DNA from: a virus
Lineage: Duplodnaviria; Heunggongvirae; Uroviricota; Caudoviricetes
Length of the DNA stretch: 7,482 bases
Virus record (IMG/VR): IMGVR_UViG_2657245015_000003
Reading direction: 5' to 3' (one strand)
Of this stretch, positions 3,570 to 7,482 are shown piece after piece (the stretch's first letter is position 1; each line of letters begins with the position of its first letter). The notes beneath the pieces are model-generated. The model saw nothing but the letters and a program-made list of their open reading frames with translations, did no database searches and was not told where the DNA came from. Position numbers and translations under genes: made by a program.

Positions 3570-3630
3570 AAAACTTAGGTTTTTCTACACAAAAAGCTTG
3601 ACCACAATTCTTAGGTTATTCTAAATTCTA
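3570..3630 (+). promoter_or_regulatory. dicB-operon promoter (PL analogue) with flanking DicA-type operator repeats
   Basis: Candidate -35 TTGACC (3598..3603) and -10 CTAAAT (3621..3626) with 17-bp spacing. Two copies of CTTAGGTT(T/A)TTCTA (3574..3587 and 3609..3622) bracket the -35, echoing the CCTTAG/CTAAGG half-sites of the dicA/dicC intergenic region. Confidence 0.45.
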
Positions 3631-3703
3631 CTCATCAAGACACCGCACGGTGTTCTCAGCAAACAGTTCCGCTACCCTGGCGTTAAGGGGAAATGAGGTC
3701 AGC

Positions 3704-3859
3704 ATGGATACTATCGATCTTGGCAACAACGAATCTCTGGTATGCGGCGTGTTTCCCAACCAGGACGGCACGTTCACCGCGATGACGTATACCAAAAGCA
3801 AAACGTTTAAAACCGAAAATGGTGCCCGTCGCTGGCTGGAAAGAAACTCAGGTGAGTGA
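3704..3859 (+). CDS. ydfA: YdfA-like small protein (51 aa)
   Basis: ATG at 3704 with GAGGT upstream gives MDTIDLGNNESLVCGVFPNQDGTFTAMTYTKSKTFKTENGARRWLERNSGE. Length and position (first gene after the promoter downstream of dicA) match ydfA of Qin. The ORF-track N-terminal extension from 3650 is unlikely. Confidence 0.65.
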   Translation: MDTIDLGNNESLVCGVFPNQDGTFTAMTYTKSKTFKTENGARRWLERNSGE

Positions 3860-3860
3860 T

Positions 3861-3989
3861 ATGGATTTCGACACAATCATGGAAAAGGCTTACGAAGAAT
3901 ACTTCGATGGTCTTGCCGAAGGCGAAGAAACTCTCAGCTTCAACGAATTTAAACAGGCGCTTTCCAGTTCGGCAAAATCTAACGGCTGA
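3861..3989 (+). CDS. ydfB: YdfB-like small protein (42 aa)
   Basis: Below the ORF-track size cutoff; found by hand translation as MDFDTIMEKAYEEYFDGLAEGEETLSFNEFKQALSSSAKSNG. AGGTGA lies upstream and the start is 1 nt after the ydfA-like stop. Size and order match ydfB. Confidence 0.6.
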   Translation: MDFDTIMEKAYEEYFDGLAEGEETLSFNEFKQALSSSAKSNG

Positions 3990-4018
3990 TAAGCGAAACA
4001 GCACCGCGAGGAATCAGT

Positions 4019-4237
4019 ATGCAGAAACGAGAACCCGTCATCATCGCGCCAGACTATACCGATGATGAACTTTATGAGTGGATGCGCCAGAAAATTAATG
4101 CAGTGCAGGATCTGAAATGGGCCAATGAAGCCAGGACTAAGCAGGCTGAAAATCTGTCCGCTCTGGAGCAGGATATCACCAGGCTGGAAAAAGCAGCGGC
4201 ATTAAGCATTGCCAGAATGGTTACATACCCACGTTAA
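4019..4237 (+). CDS. ydfC: YdfC-like small protein (72 aa)
   Basis: 72-aa ORF with GAGGAA upstream. Size and order match ydfC of the dicB operon. Confidence 0.65.
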   Translation: MQKREPVIIAPDYTDDELYEWMRQKINAVQDLKWANEARTKQAENLSALEQDITRLEKAAALSIARMVTYPR

Positions 4238-4259
4238 TAGCTAACCAACGAGGCTAATA

Positions 4260-4661
4260 ATGGAATTTAAAGATTTACCAATGCCATTCCAGGAAATGGC
4301 AGCGAATGTGGTTCGCTCTCAACTGGCGACTCTTGACCTGAGTACTGTAGAAAAGGAAACCATCGATACTATATCCGGTAACGTGCGTCGTGCCTTTATA
4401 GGTCTGTATGAAGAGAAGCGCCTATTCGGCGGACAGAATTCGCCTGAAAACAAGAATCAAGCAAATGATGAGAAGCTGAAACACATTATCGCCTTACTTT
4501 TGGAAGACGCAAAACGTCTACAGCAACTGGAACCAAATGCAGGCACAGAGGCCCGCATTTGGATTGCCATGAAATCACTCAAATGTGAAAGCAGTGATTA
4601 TTTCAAAACAACAATTAAAACTACTCAACTTTCGGGAGAGCTACTGAAGAAATTGCCATAA
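4260..4661 (+). CDS. Hypothetical protein (133 aa), unknown function, co-oriented with the dicB-type operon
   Basis: ATG 22 nt after the ydfC-like stop, with GAGG 6 nt upstream. Codon pattern is coding-like. No recognisable motif. Lies in an AT-rich segment. Confidence 0.5.
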   Translation: MEFKDLPMPFQEMAANVVRSQLATLDLSTVEKETIDTISGNVRRAFIGLYEEKRLFGGQNSPENKNQANDEKLKHIIALLLEDAKRLQQLEPNAGTEARIWIAMKSLKCESSDYFKTTIKTTQLSGELLKKLP

Positions 4662-4899
4662 GAGCATGGTCTTTCTCTTGTTCTGCAAGATGAGCATTAA
4701 TACCTGGTATGGTTTTTTCAAATTTATCTATCTGTTGAATAACAACTTCGCGGTATACGTTTGTTTTTGTACCACCAAGCGCAGCCGTTAATGCAGAAAG
4801 CATATTTAGTATCATATCAGTGCGATATGAAAGAATCCTGATAGCTTCATCTTGTTTTTCAATAATAGATTGCAGGGCCTCAATTTGCTTTTTATCCAT
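4621..4899 (-). CDS. Hypothetical protein (92 aa from ATG at 4899; 105 aa if the GTG at 4938 is used), antisense to the dicB-type operon
   Basis: Strong RBS: AGGAGGG lies 4 nt upstream of the ATG at 4899. AT-rich coding-like codon usage (MDKKQIEALQSIIEKQDEAIRIL...). Its 3' end overlaps the convergent 133-aa ORF by 41 nt. Confidence 0.5.
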   Translation of the reverse strand: MDKKQIEALQSIIEKQDEAIRILSYRTDMILNMLSALTAALGGTKTNVYREVVIQQIDKFEKTIPGINAHLAEQEKDHALMAISSVALPKVE

Positions 4900-5231
4900 T
4901 TCACCCTCCTGAGGGTTGGTAATTAAGGAGTTCTCCACGGGTCAGGTGGAGTGCGTGCGCCGGACACGGGTGAACATCCGGCACTGACAGTTTACTGAAA
5001 GGATATGTCCCTGAAAAGTCAGGGCATAACGCGAAAGCGCACGGCGAAATTGGTCTCTCTGTACGGTGTCGTTAAATTTAGTTCGACCGTGCGCTTCCGG
5101 TTGTGGCACTCCGCGAAATGGCGCGGCGGTAAGTATGGCGGGGTTATTCCTTCCCCCGTTGAGGACACCGGGTTGTCAGGTTGACCATACGCTTAAGTGA
5201 CAACTCCGCTGCAACGCCCTCTGTTATCAAT

Positions 5232-5289
5232 TTTCTGGTGACTTTTGGCGGTATCAGTTCTACTCCGTGACTGCTCTGCCGCCCTTTTT
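5232..5289 (+). ncRNA. dicF: DicF small regulatory RNA with 3' intrinsic terminator
   Basis: TTTCTGGTGACTTTTGGCGGTATCAGTTCTACTCCGTGACTGCTCTGCCGCCCTTTTT matches my recollection of DicF at nearly every position. The 3' end is a GGCGG...CCGCC stem followed by a T-run. Lies between ydfC and dicB, as in Qin. Boundaries approximate. Confidence 0.8.
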
Positions 5290-5571
5290 AAAGTGAATTT
5301 TGTGATGCGGTGAATGCGGCTCAGCGCACGCGGAACAGTTAAAACCAAAAACAGTGTTATGGGTGGATTCTCTGTATCCGGCGTTAATTGTTAACTGGTT
5401 AACGTCACCTGGAGGCACCAGGCACCGCATCAACAAAGTTCACTTCGGTGATGAAAGGTAGAGAAAATGTTGAATGTAGCTATTGAAAACCAGAACGGGT
5501 GGAATTATAGTGCACCTGCACCTCATAAAACGGGTGCCGGGCGTGGAAACCCGAAATCATTCACGGCGCAT

Positions 5572-5594
5572 AACCGCGCTCAGGCGGTTTTTTT
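5572..5594 (+). terminator. Candidate intrinsic terminator upstream of the Rha-like gene
   Basis: AACCGC-GCTCAG-GCGGTT hairpin followed by a run of 7 T on the plus strand. Confidence 0.4.
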
Positions 5595-5763
5595 ATGCGT
5601 TAAGCACAGCCACATTCGCATTATGGTGGGGCGTGCAGGGCAGCCGCAAGGCTGGCCGGGTTCCGTGATGACCGGTATTTCCACCCCTGTACGTCTCACC
5701 ACCCTTATGGTCGTGGAAAACCTCGGTGGTGAGTTAATCAAATTCATCGCGGAGGCTGCCATC

Positions 5764-6321
5764 ATGGCTACTATCCTTACCCTTTCTCACCCTGACGTAA
5801 CCATCGAAAATGGTCGCGCTGTCACTACGTCTGTTGCGATCGCCGAGTTCTTTGGCAAACGCCACGAACGAGTGTTGGATAAAATTCGCAATCTGGACTG
5901 TTCAGCAAAATTCACTGAGCACAATTTTGTGTCGAGCGAATACACCGACTCAACCGGGCGCAAACTCCCAATGTACCAAATCACCAAAAACGGCTTCGTT
6001 TTCCTGGTGATGGGCTTCACTGGCAAAAAAGCCGCTGCATTTAAAGAGGCATACATTGCTGAGTTCGACCGCATGGAAGCTGAACTGCGCCAGAATAACG
6101 CCCCGTCTCCCGACAAAATGATTCACGGGGACGGACGCACCCTGGTTATCCGTCTCGACGAACACGGCAATATCAAATTCACTGAAACCGTTCCTGACGG
6201 CGCAATGGTCTGCACCCTGGATACCTTCCTGTTTTATCTGGAGCAACAAGGCTGGACTCTTGTAAACCGGAGCGCAATTAAAAATATGACTGTGGAGCAA
6301 TTGCTAAAAATTCATTGTTGA
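5764..6321 (+). CDS. Rha-family phage regulatory protein
   Basis: The ORF-track frame runs 5467..6321, but the ATG at 5764 has GGAGG 8 nt upstream. The terminator-like hairpin at 5572..5594 lies inside the upstream extension, whose translation looks non-protein-like. From 5764, the segment VTTSVAIAEFFGKRHERVLDKIRNL...KLPMYQITKNGFVFLVMGFTGKKAAAFKEAYIAEFDRME matches the Rha-domain pattern as I recall it. Confidence 0.6.
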   Translation: MATILTLSHPDVTIENGRAVTTSVAIAEFFGKRHERVLDKIRNLDCSAKFTEHNFVSSEYTDSTGRKLPMYQITKNGFVFLVMGFTGKKAAAFKEAYIAEFDRMEAELRQNNAPSPDKMIHGDGRTLVIRLDEHGNIKFTETVPDGAMVCTLDTFLFYLEQQGWTLVNRSAIKNMTVEQLLKIHC

Positions 6322-6331
6322 GGACGCGATA

Positions 6332-6520
6332 ATGGAAACGTCACTACCAAACGTTAATACGTCTGACGGGTGCTTTAATATTGGTGTTCTGCTCAGTAAC
6401 AGGGATTTCACCGAGGATGCAATCAATATGAGAAAATATGAACCCTACCTGCTGAATGACAATTCCATACTCTCCAGAATTGCCCTTCTTAAACTCGGTA
6501 TTTTCGGAGAGTGGCGATGA
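6332..6520 (+). CDS. dicB: DicB-like cell-division inhibitor (62 aa)
   Basis: METSLPNVNTSDGCFNIGVLLSNRDFTEDAINMRK... closely resembles the recalled K-12 DicB N-terminus (M.TLLPNVNTSEGCFEIGV...FTEDAINKRK). 62 aa. GAGGA upstream. Lies downstream of dicF. Confidence 0.8.
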   Translation: METSLPNVNTSDGCFNIGVLLSNRDFTEDAINMRKYEPYLLNDNSILSRIALLKLGIFGEWR

Positions 6521-6720
6521 ACACATTATTCGTACTCATTCTGACTGTACATCTCAATACTGGTGAGTCGCTTGATGCAATCACCGGCATGTACAACTCA
6601 ATGAAAGAATGCATGGCTGCCGCAGCGGAACAGAAAATTCCCGGCAACTGTTATCCGGTCGATAAAGTTATTCACATGGACAATAACGAAATCCCGGCAG
6701 GATTAAAAACAGCGCCGTAA
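6517..6720 (+). CDS. ydfD: YdfD-like small protein (lysis-associated in Qin)
   Basis: ATG at 6517 overlaps the dicB stop as ATGA. 67-aa product with a hydrophobic N-terminus (MNTLFVLILTVHL). Position matches ydfD. Confidence 0.65.
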   Translation: MNTLFVLILTVHLNTGESLDAITGMYNSMKECMAAAAEQKIPGNCYPVDKVIHMDNNEIPAGLKTAP

Positions 6721-6800
6721 TTAATATCCAGTTTCATTTTTATATGCCAGCAATGGCAGGGATTTGTTCACCCTGAAATCTGTAATGAGGTTAAAACAAA

Positions 6801-7482
6801 ATGAGTAAGGTCTTTATTTGCGCCGCTATTCCTGACGAACTGGCAACAAGGGAAGAAGGCGCTGTGGCTGTAGCCACAGCCATTGAAGCTGGCGACGAAC
6901 GCCGTGCTCGAGCAAAATTTCACTGGCAATTCCTGGAACATTATCCGGCTGCTCAGGACTGCGCTTATAAATTTATTGTCTGCGAGGATAAACCTGGCAT
7001 ACCCCGCCCTGCCCTCGATTCCTGGGATGCTGAATATATGCAGGAAAACCGCTGGGATGAGGAATCCGCTTCCTTTGTCCCGGTTGAGACTGAATCAGAT
7101 CCGATGAACGTCACTTTTGACAAGCTGGCCCCTGAAGTACAGAACGCTGTCATGGTTAAGTTCGACACATGTGAAAACATCACCGTTGATATGGTTATTA
7201 GCGCACAGGAATTGTTGCAGGAAGACATGGCAACATTCGACGGACATATCGTTGAAGCGTTGATGAAAATGCCAGATGTTAACGCCATGTATCCGGAGCT
7301 TAAGCTGCATGCCATCGGGTGGGTTAAGCATAAATGTAAGCCTGGTGCCAAATGGCCCGAAATTCAGGCAGAGATGCGCATCTGGAAAAAACGTCGCGAA
7401 GGCGAACGCAAGGAAACCGGAAAATACACGACTGTTGTTGATCTCGCCCGCGCCAGAACCAATCAACAGCACAGTGAAAATT
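6801..7482 (+). CDS. Prophage protein of unknown function (possibly YdfE-like), 3' end runs off the window
   Basis: ATG at 6801 is the first start after an in-frame stop. The frame stays open for 227 codons to the window end (hand translated; absent from the ORF track because it is incomplete). Acidic, protein-like composition. GAGG lies about 10 nt upstream. Confidence 0.55.
   Translation, partial: MSKVFICAAIPDELATREEGAVAVATAIEAGDERRARAKFHWQFLEHYPAAQDCAYKFIVCEDKPGIPRPALDSWDAEYMQENRWDEESASFVPVETESDPMNVTFDKLAPEVQNAVMVKFDTCENITVDMVISAQELLQEDMATFDGHIVEALMKMPDVNAMYPELKLHAIGWVKHKCKPGAKWPEIQAEMRIWKKRREGERKETGKYTTVVDLARARTNQQHSEN

Follow-up and report, generated by a model that had tools for sequence, protein, structure and literature searches.

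What occupies the interval between ydfC and dicF in a Qin-like prophage when it is not the gene-free spacer of Escherichia coli K-12? The question is raised by a stretch of 7,482 nucleotides (nt) from a virus of the Caudoviricetes (IMG/VR virus record IMGVR_UViG_2657245015_000003), which is called the window here. The dicBF locus is a textbook case of prophage genes with effects on host division and on phage sensitivity. It has been studied in K-12, a strain that has lost the cassette described below. In the window, the interval holds two convergent open reading frames (ORFs), ORF1 and ORF2, designated X and Y. The explanation favoured here is that the C-terminal module of X (X-C) and Y would form a cognate protein pair with antisense-coupled reciprocal expression, carried as an accessory cassette by temperate enterobacterial phages. 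This explanation is tentative and is given somewhat less than an even chance.

A Segment Missing from K-12 Qin

In order and on one strand, the window carries a DicA-type repressor, ydfA-ydfB-ydfC, DicF, dicB (6332–6520) and ydfD, which makes it a Qin-like dicBF early-left operon. The repressor is of the helix-turn-helix (HTH)-only kind, without a self-cleavage domain. A RefSeq locus that is 99.6% identical (L001) is annotated with a dicA-like gene, ydfA, ydfB, ydfC, two hypothetical proteins, a Rha-family gene, dicB and a DUF1482 gene. The two hypothetical proteins are X and Y, which RefSeq already lists as WP_000394529.1 (133 amino acids, aa) and WP_000358771.1 (92 aa).

The window was aligned by blastn with K-12 MG1655 (NC_000913.3). 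Positions 3633–4257 and 4914–5442 align to neighbouring bases of K-12, so exactly 4258–4913 is missing there. The alignment on the ydfC side has 96% identity and stops at 4257, and the junction in K-12 reads GCTAA/GGTTAGTAATTAAGGAG. The missing piece spans from 2 nt 5' of the X start codon to the ribosome-binding site of Y, and the K-12 ydfC–dicF interval that remains is 340 bp long. No direct or inverted repeats that would mark a mobile element flank the cassette beyond chance. Relative to K-12, the operon has two insertions, this one and another at 5443–6306. The features of the locus are as follows:

4019–4237, plus strand: ydfC homologue, last backbone gene before the cassette (annotation of L001)
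4258–4913: stretch of 656 bp without counterpart in K-12 Qin, a clean indel
4260–4661, plus strand: ORF1 (X), 133 aa from ATG, 22 nt 3' of ydfC in the repressor-controlled early-left operon
4621–4899, minus strand: ORF2 (Y), 92 aa from the ATG at 4899; in the ORF list 4621–4938, 105 aa from a GTG
4621–4661: convergent 3' overlap of X and Y, 41 nt (ORF list)
5233–5284, plus strand: DicF small RNA (Rfam RF00039, 71.5 bits against a gathering score of 48), downstream backbone landmark

A preliminary description, made from the letters of the window without database searches, had reported an AT-rich segment of about 700 bp beside GC-rich DNA on its right. It had placed the segment where K-12 has no annotated gene and had seen in it two convergent ORFs with good ribosome-binding sites and a 41-nt overlap. 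All of this is confirmed. The G+C content is 40.8% for the two-ORF segment, 40.4% for 4258–4913 and 36.9% for Y (25% at third codon positions), compared with 48.3% for the whole window and 54.2% for the structured DNA of the right flank (4914–5232). The K-12 spacer is gene-free. Shine–Dalgarno (SD) sequences are present 7 nt before the ATG of X (GAGG) and 5 nt before that of Y (GGAGGG). The alignment to K-12 Qin that had been proposed shows that the segment is not conserved there and defines its boundaries as 4258 and 4913. Two further statements stand in part. A length of 92 to 105 aa had been allowed for Y; the shorter form agrees with the family, whose members all begin at ATG and have 90–93 aa, and the longer one does not. 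The suggestion of acquired cargo is correct in that the segment is exchangeable and missing from K-12 Qin; it is not a one-off insertion but one allele of a polymorphic slot.

Selection on Both Reading Frames

Substitutions were analysed by the Nei-Gojobori method in all six frames, with the cassette DNA of the window aligned with two diverged copies (L004 and L010). In the frame of Y, the ratio of non-synonymous to synonymous substitution rates (dN/dS) is 0.11–0.30, the lowest of the six, and this frame is the only one free of stops. Four other frames have ratios of 1.0–2.4, and the codon-mirrored plus-strand frame has 0.25–0.44. The Salmonella homologues of Y are 71–82% identical, and in the 19-codon core YRTDMILNMLSALTAALGG seven synonymous and no non-synonymous differences between E. 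coli and Salmonella can be read from the alignment. In the conserved part of the X C-module, the ratio for the frame of X is 0.10–0.20 in two of three pairs, the third being one with saturated dS; over the whole module it is 0.17–0.40. This frame is likewise the sole stop-free one, and the other frames carry one to nine stops. Judged by these rates, X and Y are both genuine genes under purifying selection.

The alternative that Y is a shadow ORF, with only the plus strand functional or with the minus strand giving merely a non-coding antisense RNA, has next to no probability. Y is AT-rich and lies opposite a transcribed operon, which would fit such an ORF. Against this stand the low ratio in its own frame, on which this candidate was rejected, the purely synonymous changes of the core, and the start, length and strong SD kept across diverged members.

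The Modules of X and the Family of Y

X matches phrog_1363, a PHROG of unknown function, over aa 1–131 of 133 (E = 3.4e-45). Its homologues form 263 clusters, all enterobacterial and all labelled hypothetical. In their alignment, the first 53 residues are nearly invariant and are followed by abruptly differing C-termini. In PHROG profiles, residues 1–62 are shared with phrog_6937, phrog_2151 and phrog_9419, and residues 69–117 with phrog_30817, phrog_12693, phrog_32391 and phrog_2982. The AlphaFold2 model of X has helices at residues 8–23 and 32–56, with a predicted local distance difference test (pLDDT) score of 80–87, a disordered linker at 56–71, and a helical C-module of low confidence (pLDDT ~53). 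The protein is predicted to be helical without a membrane segment. By this division of its homologues, X is a fusion, and only its C-terminal half belongs with Y. The modules and the exchanged unit are the following:

4260–4418, plus strand: X N-module, aa 1–53, a helical hairpin common to all cassette versions
4464–4661, plus strand: X C-module (X-C), aa 69–133, the part paired with Y
4420–4896: exchanged unit, starting with X codon 54 and ending one base short of the Y start codon (alignments of types B and C)

Y matches phrog_18692, whose function is also unknown, with E = 9.6e-63; profile positions 1–92 of 92 are covered by aa 14–105 of the 105-aa reading. Nothing in the PHROG table that was returned connects phrog_1363 with phrog_18692. 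The Y family is small and comprises 22 clusters. An exhaustive profile search of 1.84 billion representative proteins gave 20 hits, among which were five new members of 90–93 aa and one spurious HEAT-repeat protein. A tblastn search of 50,697 deposited phage records found no match to Y, and a scan of the GTDB species representatives found no member of its family. The AlphaFold2 model of Y is a predicted soluble three-helix bundle (pLDDT 79).

A Polymorphic Slot

Related prophages carry other versions of the cassette at the same place. Type B comes from a swine isolate (L002), which agrees with the window as far as 4419 and once more from 4897 on. The differing DNA in the middle encodes an X whose C-module is another one (109 aa) and, convergent to it, an ORF of 91 aa that is a colinear homologue of Y with 28% identity; the X-C modules of types A and B are connected by transitive homology. 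Type C, from phage Evi and PPompW prophages, has the same boundaries and rejoins the window at 4900. Its X consists of a variant N-module and an unrelated C-part (135 aa) and is overlapped for 23 nt by a convergent 77-aa ORF, Y'. From the breakpoints of types B and C it follows that the swapped unit is the one listed above, beginning at X codon 54 and ending just before the start codon of Y.

The versions were counted in 5,426 complete E. coli genomes. The full type A, that is, the whole of 4258–4913, is present in 124 and the full type B in about 198. Carriers of the type-A cassette include E. coli NCCP15648 and CE10, with 99–100% identity. The first 162 nt of the query (4258–4419, the X N-module) are found in about 896. 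The junction is empty, as in K-12, in 2,333 genomes. The occurrence of type A beside so many empty junctions, together with a G+C content of 40% against 48–54%, is the presence/absence pattern and atypical composition of a moron. As the alignments have it, at least three exchangeable versions exist in E. coli, and the segment is the allele called type A.

A protein from an ENA metagenomic contig of 639 nt (P0107) has a type-B X in frame with the reverse complement of the region upstream of dicF (compare L029, 2205–2426, minus strand). The joint stems either from a local inversion or from chimerism in the assembly.

The Pair in Other Prophages

The pair is not confined to Qin-like prophages. 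In lambdoid prophages of Salmonella, a Y homologue of 93 aa is faced by an ORF of 71–75 aa that has its own SD and ATG. The stand-alone ORF of 71 aa corresponds to X residues 69–133 with 60% identity and has no N-module. The overlap with Y is also 41 nt in the Salmonella loci L004–L007 and in L010. One E. coli-like IMG/VR locus has a stand-alone X-C of 67 aa.

Two P2-like prophages (L011 and L016) have the order int, C repressor, cox, X, Y. Their X proteins, of 214 or 140 aa, overlap Y by 41 nt in L011 and 44 nt in L016 and have in common an N-module unlike the E. coli one. Both end in an X-C-like module with 42% identity to the type-B X-C (over 36 aa) and 35% to the type-A X-C (over 31 aa); the homology of the X-C of the window to them is transitive. 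In L011, a true HTH_3 domain precedes X-C (30.5 bits against a cut-off of 23). Going by its domain order, this fusion is built like a regulator whose tail binds a partner. Because X-C and Y occur together in lambdoid and P2-like prophages despite the different N-modules of X, they appear to be a functional unit.

Among 56 type-A loci in IMG/VR, all 50 with an intact Y have an intact convergent X and an overlap of 41 nt; Y is frameshifted in five further loci, and one more locus is itself truncated. The overlap measures 41 nt in type A and Salmonella and 41–44 nt in P2-like prophages; types B and C have 32 and 23 nt, respectively. To judge by this recurrence, the convergent overlap is a conserved design feature and not an accident. 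From the loci compared it also appears that Y implies X, and that X does not imply Y.

Several loci show further changes around Y. In the five frameshifted IMG/VR loci (L081–L085), Y is shortened to 27 aa and X is intact. In one complete genome, an insertion sequence of the IS3 family interrupts Y and leaves X intact (L030, 2003–3216). In a Salmonella locus that has Y only (L008, 3032–3594), a ParE/PhdYeFM toxin–antitoxin pair and a Rha gene lie in the same early-left operon a few genes past Y, which illustrates the amount of accessory cargo gathered in the region.

The Leader of Y

The minus strand carries a leader and candidate expression signals for Y:

4900–4984, minus strand: 5' leader of Y; hairpin 1 (GUGCCGGAUG...UGUCCGGCGC), hairpin 2 (CUCCAC...GUGGAG), then the SD GGAGGG
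4989–5017, minus strand: promoter-like hexamers for Y, TTTTCA, 17 nt, TAAACT, picked out by eye and putative
4197–4214, minus strand: terminator-like hairpin inside ydfC from a consensus scan, a weak candidate, such sites being no more numerous than in shuffled sequence

About 30 nt of the leader are invariant in 12 loci from five genera (Escherichia, Shigella, Salmonella, Edwardsiella and Pluralibacter), and the DNA further upstream is unrelated. The minus strand from 4985 to 4885 is predicted to form two hairpins and, after them, an SD that is partly paired, with −33.9 kcal/mol and z = −2.95; none of 200 shuffled sequences was as stable. The plus strand of the same stretch is unremarkable (z = −0.45), and two invariant U-G pairs of the leader would be A-C mismatches on that strand. 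With a permissive threshold, Rfam found DicF alone in 4600–5300 and no family for the leader.

Besides the Y genes of types A, B and C, this leader with its SD stands before a 30-aa peptide and a 156-aa ORF in Edwardsiella and before an ORF of 104 aa in Pluralibacter. It is kept in K-12, Shigella and E. albertii with no ORF behind it, and P2-like prophages have no such leader at Y. The cargo proteins behind the leader match no known family. Since the leader persists in K-12 without Y and stands before unrelated ORFs elsewhere, it would be an expression platform of the phage backbone, with the Y genes as its cargo. By its conservation, the leader with the SD of Y is part of the backbone to the right of the cassette, and it points against the early operon.

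The putative hexamers of the window end 6–9 nt before the first hairpin. So do comparable ones, likewise picked out by eye, in non-homologous upstream DNA before GCCGGAT, namely TTAATA-17-TAAAAT in L010 and TGgTATTAT in L022. No intervening terminator is seen in the sequence of the pair. The putative Y transcript might end at 4214–4197, and it would then be antisense to all of X.

The leader and the putative promoter of Y also persist in K-12 Qin (L003, about 3575–3650, minus strand). A leader transcript in K-12 would run antisense into ydfC, which predicts an unannotated antisense RNA in the dicBF operon. In Edwardsiella ictaluri and E. anguillarum (L021, 2181–2835, minus strand; L028), the cargo is a Pro/Lys-rich peptide of 30 aa followed by the 156-aa ORF, which has two hydrophobic stretches. 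It adjoins xis and int at the icd gene and has no Pfam or PADLOC match. The 156-aa protein was considered as a SLATT-like defence effector and rejected, as no model supported this.

Searches for Known Families and Sites

Neither X nor Y reaches the threshold of any Pfam, NCBIfam or PADLOC family. When their relatives and the PHROGs are included, only PHROGs of unknown function and the one HTH_3 are found. In PADLOC-DB v2, X and Y gave only sub-threshold noise (E of at least 0.014). The X of L011 matches the PADLOC models RmrA and HTH_VI with a best E of 1.5e-7, and this match covers only the HTH_3 domain (aa 83–163). Hits resembling toxin–antitoxin proteins lie far below the cut-off: one MqsA-like (E = 0.045) and one RelB-like (E = 0.015, 15.5 bits against a cut-off of 50). 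Sequence profiles of the PDB contained no relative of the pair. No LexA box (CTGT-N8-ACAG, at most one mismatch) is present in 4001–7482, and thus none near the promoter region of Y. A perfect CTGT-N8-ACAG, the core of a LexA box, occurs at 1932–1947 in the replication-gene region, and the total for the window is at chance level.

The library searched for literature on ydfC, dicF, dicBF and the excludon contained no paper in which the cassette is described. It is catalogued so far as hypothetical proteins only, and the wider two-gene family is not known to have been remarked on before. The view of the preliminary description that neither ORF has a recognisable motif agrees with these searches. 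For its proposal of an exclusion or defence gene, or of a toxin/modulator pair, no such family or fold was found, and the proposal is still conjecture.

A Proposed Cognate Pair and Its Rivals

How might such a pair work? In the favoured explanation, X would be transcribed as part of the early-left operon under repressor control (dicA - ydfABC - X - dicF - dicB). Y would be read from the opposite strand, off an antisense promoter and structured leader of the backbone, and would end 41 nt inside X. X-C and Y, exchanged together between phages and diverging together, would act as a functional unit and may bind each other as cognate partners. Convergent, overlapping transcription could make their expression reciprocal. 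In the lysogen, Y would be made. Upon derepression of the early operon, X would be made, and Y would be shut down by polymerase collision and by the duplex of complementary RNAs. The two transcripts, if made, would necessarily be complementary over at least 41 nt, and probably across all of X if transcription of Y reaches 4214–4197. Y could thus be a factor of the lysogenic state that the phage early protein X neutralises or redirects at induction. The reverse polarity, in which Y would be a resident inhibitor of the early effector X, is equally possible.

This explanation of a cognate pair with reciprocal wiring is favoured because both ORFs behave as real genes, because the pairing and the overlap are conserved, because the partners are exchanged and diverge jointly, because X-C is fused behind varied N-modules, and because Y has a separate leader. 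The predicted build of X, with two modules and a disordered linker between them, counts for it as well, as do the low G+C content of the cassette and type C, in which both partners are swapped at the boundaries of types A and B.

Several observations weigh against it. X-C and Y do not always travel together, a point that the preliminary description had raised as a question: intact X-only loci are common and a few Y-only loci exist, so neither partner strictly needs the other. A type-B-like X alone is found in about 480 of the 5,426 genomes, O157:H7 with a deleted Y included, and an intact type-A-like X without Y occurs in L029. The Y-only loci are L008 in Salmonella and L012 and L013 beside an integrase. 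In the lambda-like L014 and L015, Y is convergent to an S24-type cI, and its partner is an uncalled ORF of just 55–58 aa; the overlap with Y could by itself account for the conserved tail of this ORF. The Y' protein of type C has no similarity to Y. A fold search with the Y model matched only generic three-helix bundles, none of them informative. The covariation in the leader hairpins is not significant, most pairs never varying, and a strict consensus promoter scan did not call the candidate promoter of Y.

A serious rival, though an unlikely one, is that two unrelated morons lie back to back in a recombination hotspot. The X N-module and the leader would then be mere homology arms, and the functions of X and Y would be independent. 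This would account for the unrelated ORFs behind the leader in Edwardsiella, Pluralibacter and phage Evi, for the many different C-termini joined to the X N-module, for the X-only and Y-only loci, and for the empty junction as the commonest state. It is harder to reconcile with X-C and Y keeping the same overlap where neither arm is present: X-C has no N-module in Salmonella, and P2-like prophages lack the leader and have other N-modules. The company of X at all 50 intact type-A Y genes and the parallel divergence of X-C and Y also argue against it. Improbable, too, is a toxin–antitoxin or addiction module, in which one partner would be toxic and the other neutralising, with the antisense overlap adding control at the RNA level as in type I systems. 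Small, paired, co-diverging genes in prophages and in one island with an integrase and restriction–modification genes would suit such a module. The HTH_3-X-C fusion resembles an antitoxin with a DNA-binding domain, the sub-threshold MqsA-like and RelB-like hits point the same way, and Y is broken by IS3 in one locus and frameshifted in five of 56. On the other side, the genes are convergent rather than a co-directional operon, no family in Pfam, NCBIfam or PADLOC is reached, and intact orphans of both X and Y are found. The pair also lacks a small hydrophobic peptide, and its antisense member encodes a conserved protein where type I systems have a non-coding RNA. From the orientation, the family membership and the protein nature of the antisense partner, it follows that the pair would not be a classical type I or type II toxin–antitoxin system.

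Less probable still is a regulator of the choice between lysis and lysogeny, with Y or X as an antirepressor or modulator of the DicA-type repressor. In all cases the cassette is either no more than about 1.2 kb away from the immunity repressor or directly 3' of cox, the repressor of the window is HTH-only, and one X carries an HTH. Yet the family also lies beside S24-type CI repressors that need no antirepressor (L014 and L015), the promoter region of Y lacks a LexA box, many functional-looking relatives do without the cassette, and similarity to the Ant, Tum or Rha families is absent. A bolder form of the favoured explanation is quite unlikely, ranking below the independent morons and above the toxin–antitoxin module. 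In it, X-C and Y would be a new family of an early effector and a lysogen-expressed partner in a bistable convergent-transcription switch. Its several specificity types would serve self/non-self recognition among prophages, as exclusion or anti-exclusion between competing lambdoid and P2-like phages. The leader would be a backbone antisense promoter that in K-12 Qin fires into ydfC-ydfA and damps the leaky expression of the toxic dicBF genes.

Implications and the Neighbouring Insertion

The ydfC–dicF slot thus appears as a site of exchangeable, co-diverging gene pairs, and about one-sixth of complete E. coli genomes have at least the X N-module. The presence of the pair in Salmonella and in P2-like prophages makes it an easily cloned candidate for a new phage–phage or phage–host interaction module. 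The antisense leader upstream of dicF in K-12 offers a concrete prediction on the control of dicBF. Even without a phenotype, the cassette is a clean case of modular exchange, in which the breakpoints coincide exactly with a domain boundary on one side and a start codon on the other.

The second insertion relative to K-12 Qin (5443–6306) lies between dicF and dicB. Rfam places isrK at 5518–5594 and a C4 antisense RNA at 5619–5706 in it. Both are inside the 5' part of an ORF of 284 aa annotated as Rha family (5467–6321). Residues 14–109 of this ORF match Pfam Phage_ASH, so that one piece of DNA encodes both the Ash-like frame and the two RNAs. The arrangement resembles the P1 immI (c4-icd-ant) and Gifsy-1 isrK-anrP modules. 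Just left of the Rha insertion, RefSeq lists a DicB fragment without its C-terminus (L001, 5689–5772; about 5354–5437 of the window), in addition to the intact dicB. It looks as if the beginning of dicB had been split or duplicated by the Rha insertion.

Comparison with Known Systems

Among known systems, the morons of lambdoid early-left (pL) operons, such as lambda rexAB and sieB and Qin dicB and dicF, come to mind. Like these, the cassette is present or absent between near-identical prophages, has a G+C content below that of the backbone, lies just downstream of the immunity repressor and has apparent expression signals of its own for Y. Unlike them, its genes face each other, overlap and move as a unit, X is fused in frame to a conserved backbone-like N-module, and the proteins have no sequence or fold relationship to those of any characterised moron. 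An SOS-controlled antirepressor of the Gifsy or 186 Tum type would differ in having a LexA box, which the candidate promoter of Y lacks.

Convergent promoters that interfere with each other are known from pR and pL of phage 186 (PMC5001618). With this switch and with the excludons of Listeria, the cassette would share convergent genes, overlapping transcripts and the expectation that one promoter depresses the other. Unlike in those switches, the overlap here is at the 3' ends of two protein-coding genes with apparently cognate products. Toxin–antitoxin systems (RelBE, HigBA and MqsRA, or TxpA/RatA of type I) are similarly small, paired, co-diverging and mobile, and many antitoxins have an HTH_3, as one X does. 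The genes of type II systems run in the same direction, usually overlap in a single autoregulated operon and belong to recognised superfamilies, whereas those of the cassette are convergent in every locus examined and match no such superfamily at threshold; intact orphans of either partner occur. Type I systems combine a hydrophobic toxin with a non-coding antisense RNA, whereas Y is a conserved 92-aa protein and X has no predicted membrane segment.

The contact-dependent inhibition (CDI) proteins CdiA-CT/CdiI and the Rhs proteins complete the comparison. X differs from them as a cytoplasmic-looking protein of 133 aa, without a secretion signal, delivery or toxin domain, and with a partner on the opposite strand. 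What it has in common with them is a conserved N-terminal part followed by an abruptly variable C-module, a variable neighbour that is swapped together with this module, and the frequency of truncated and orphan copies.

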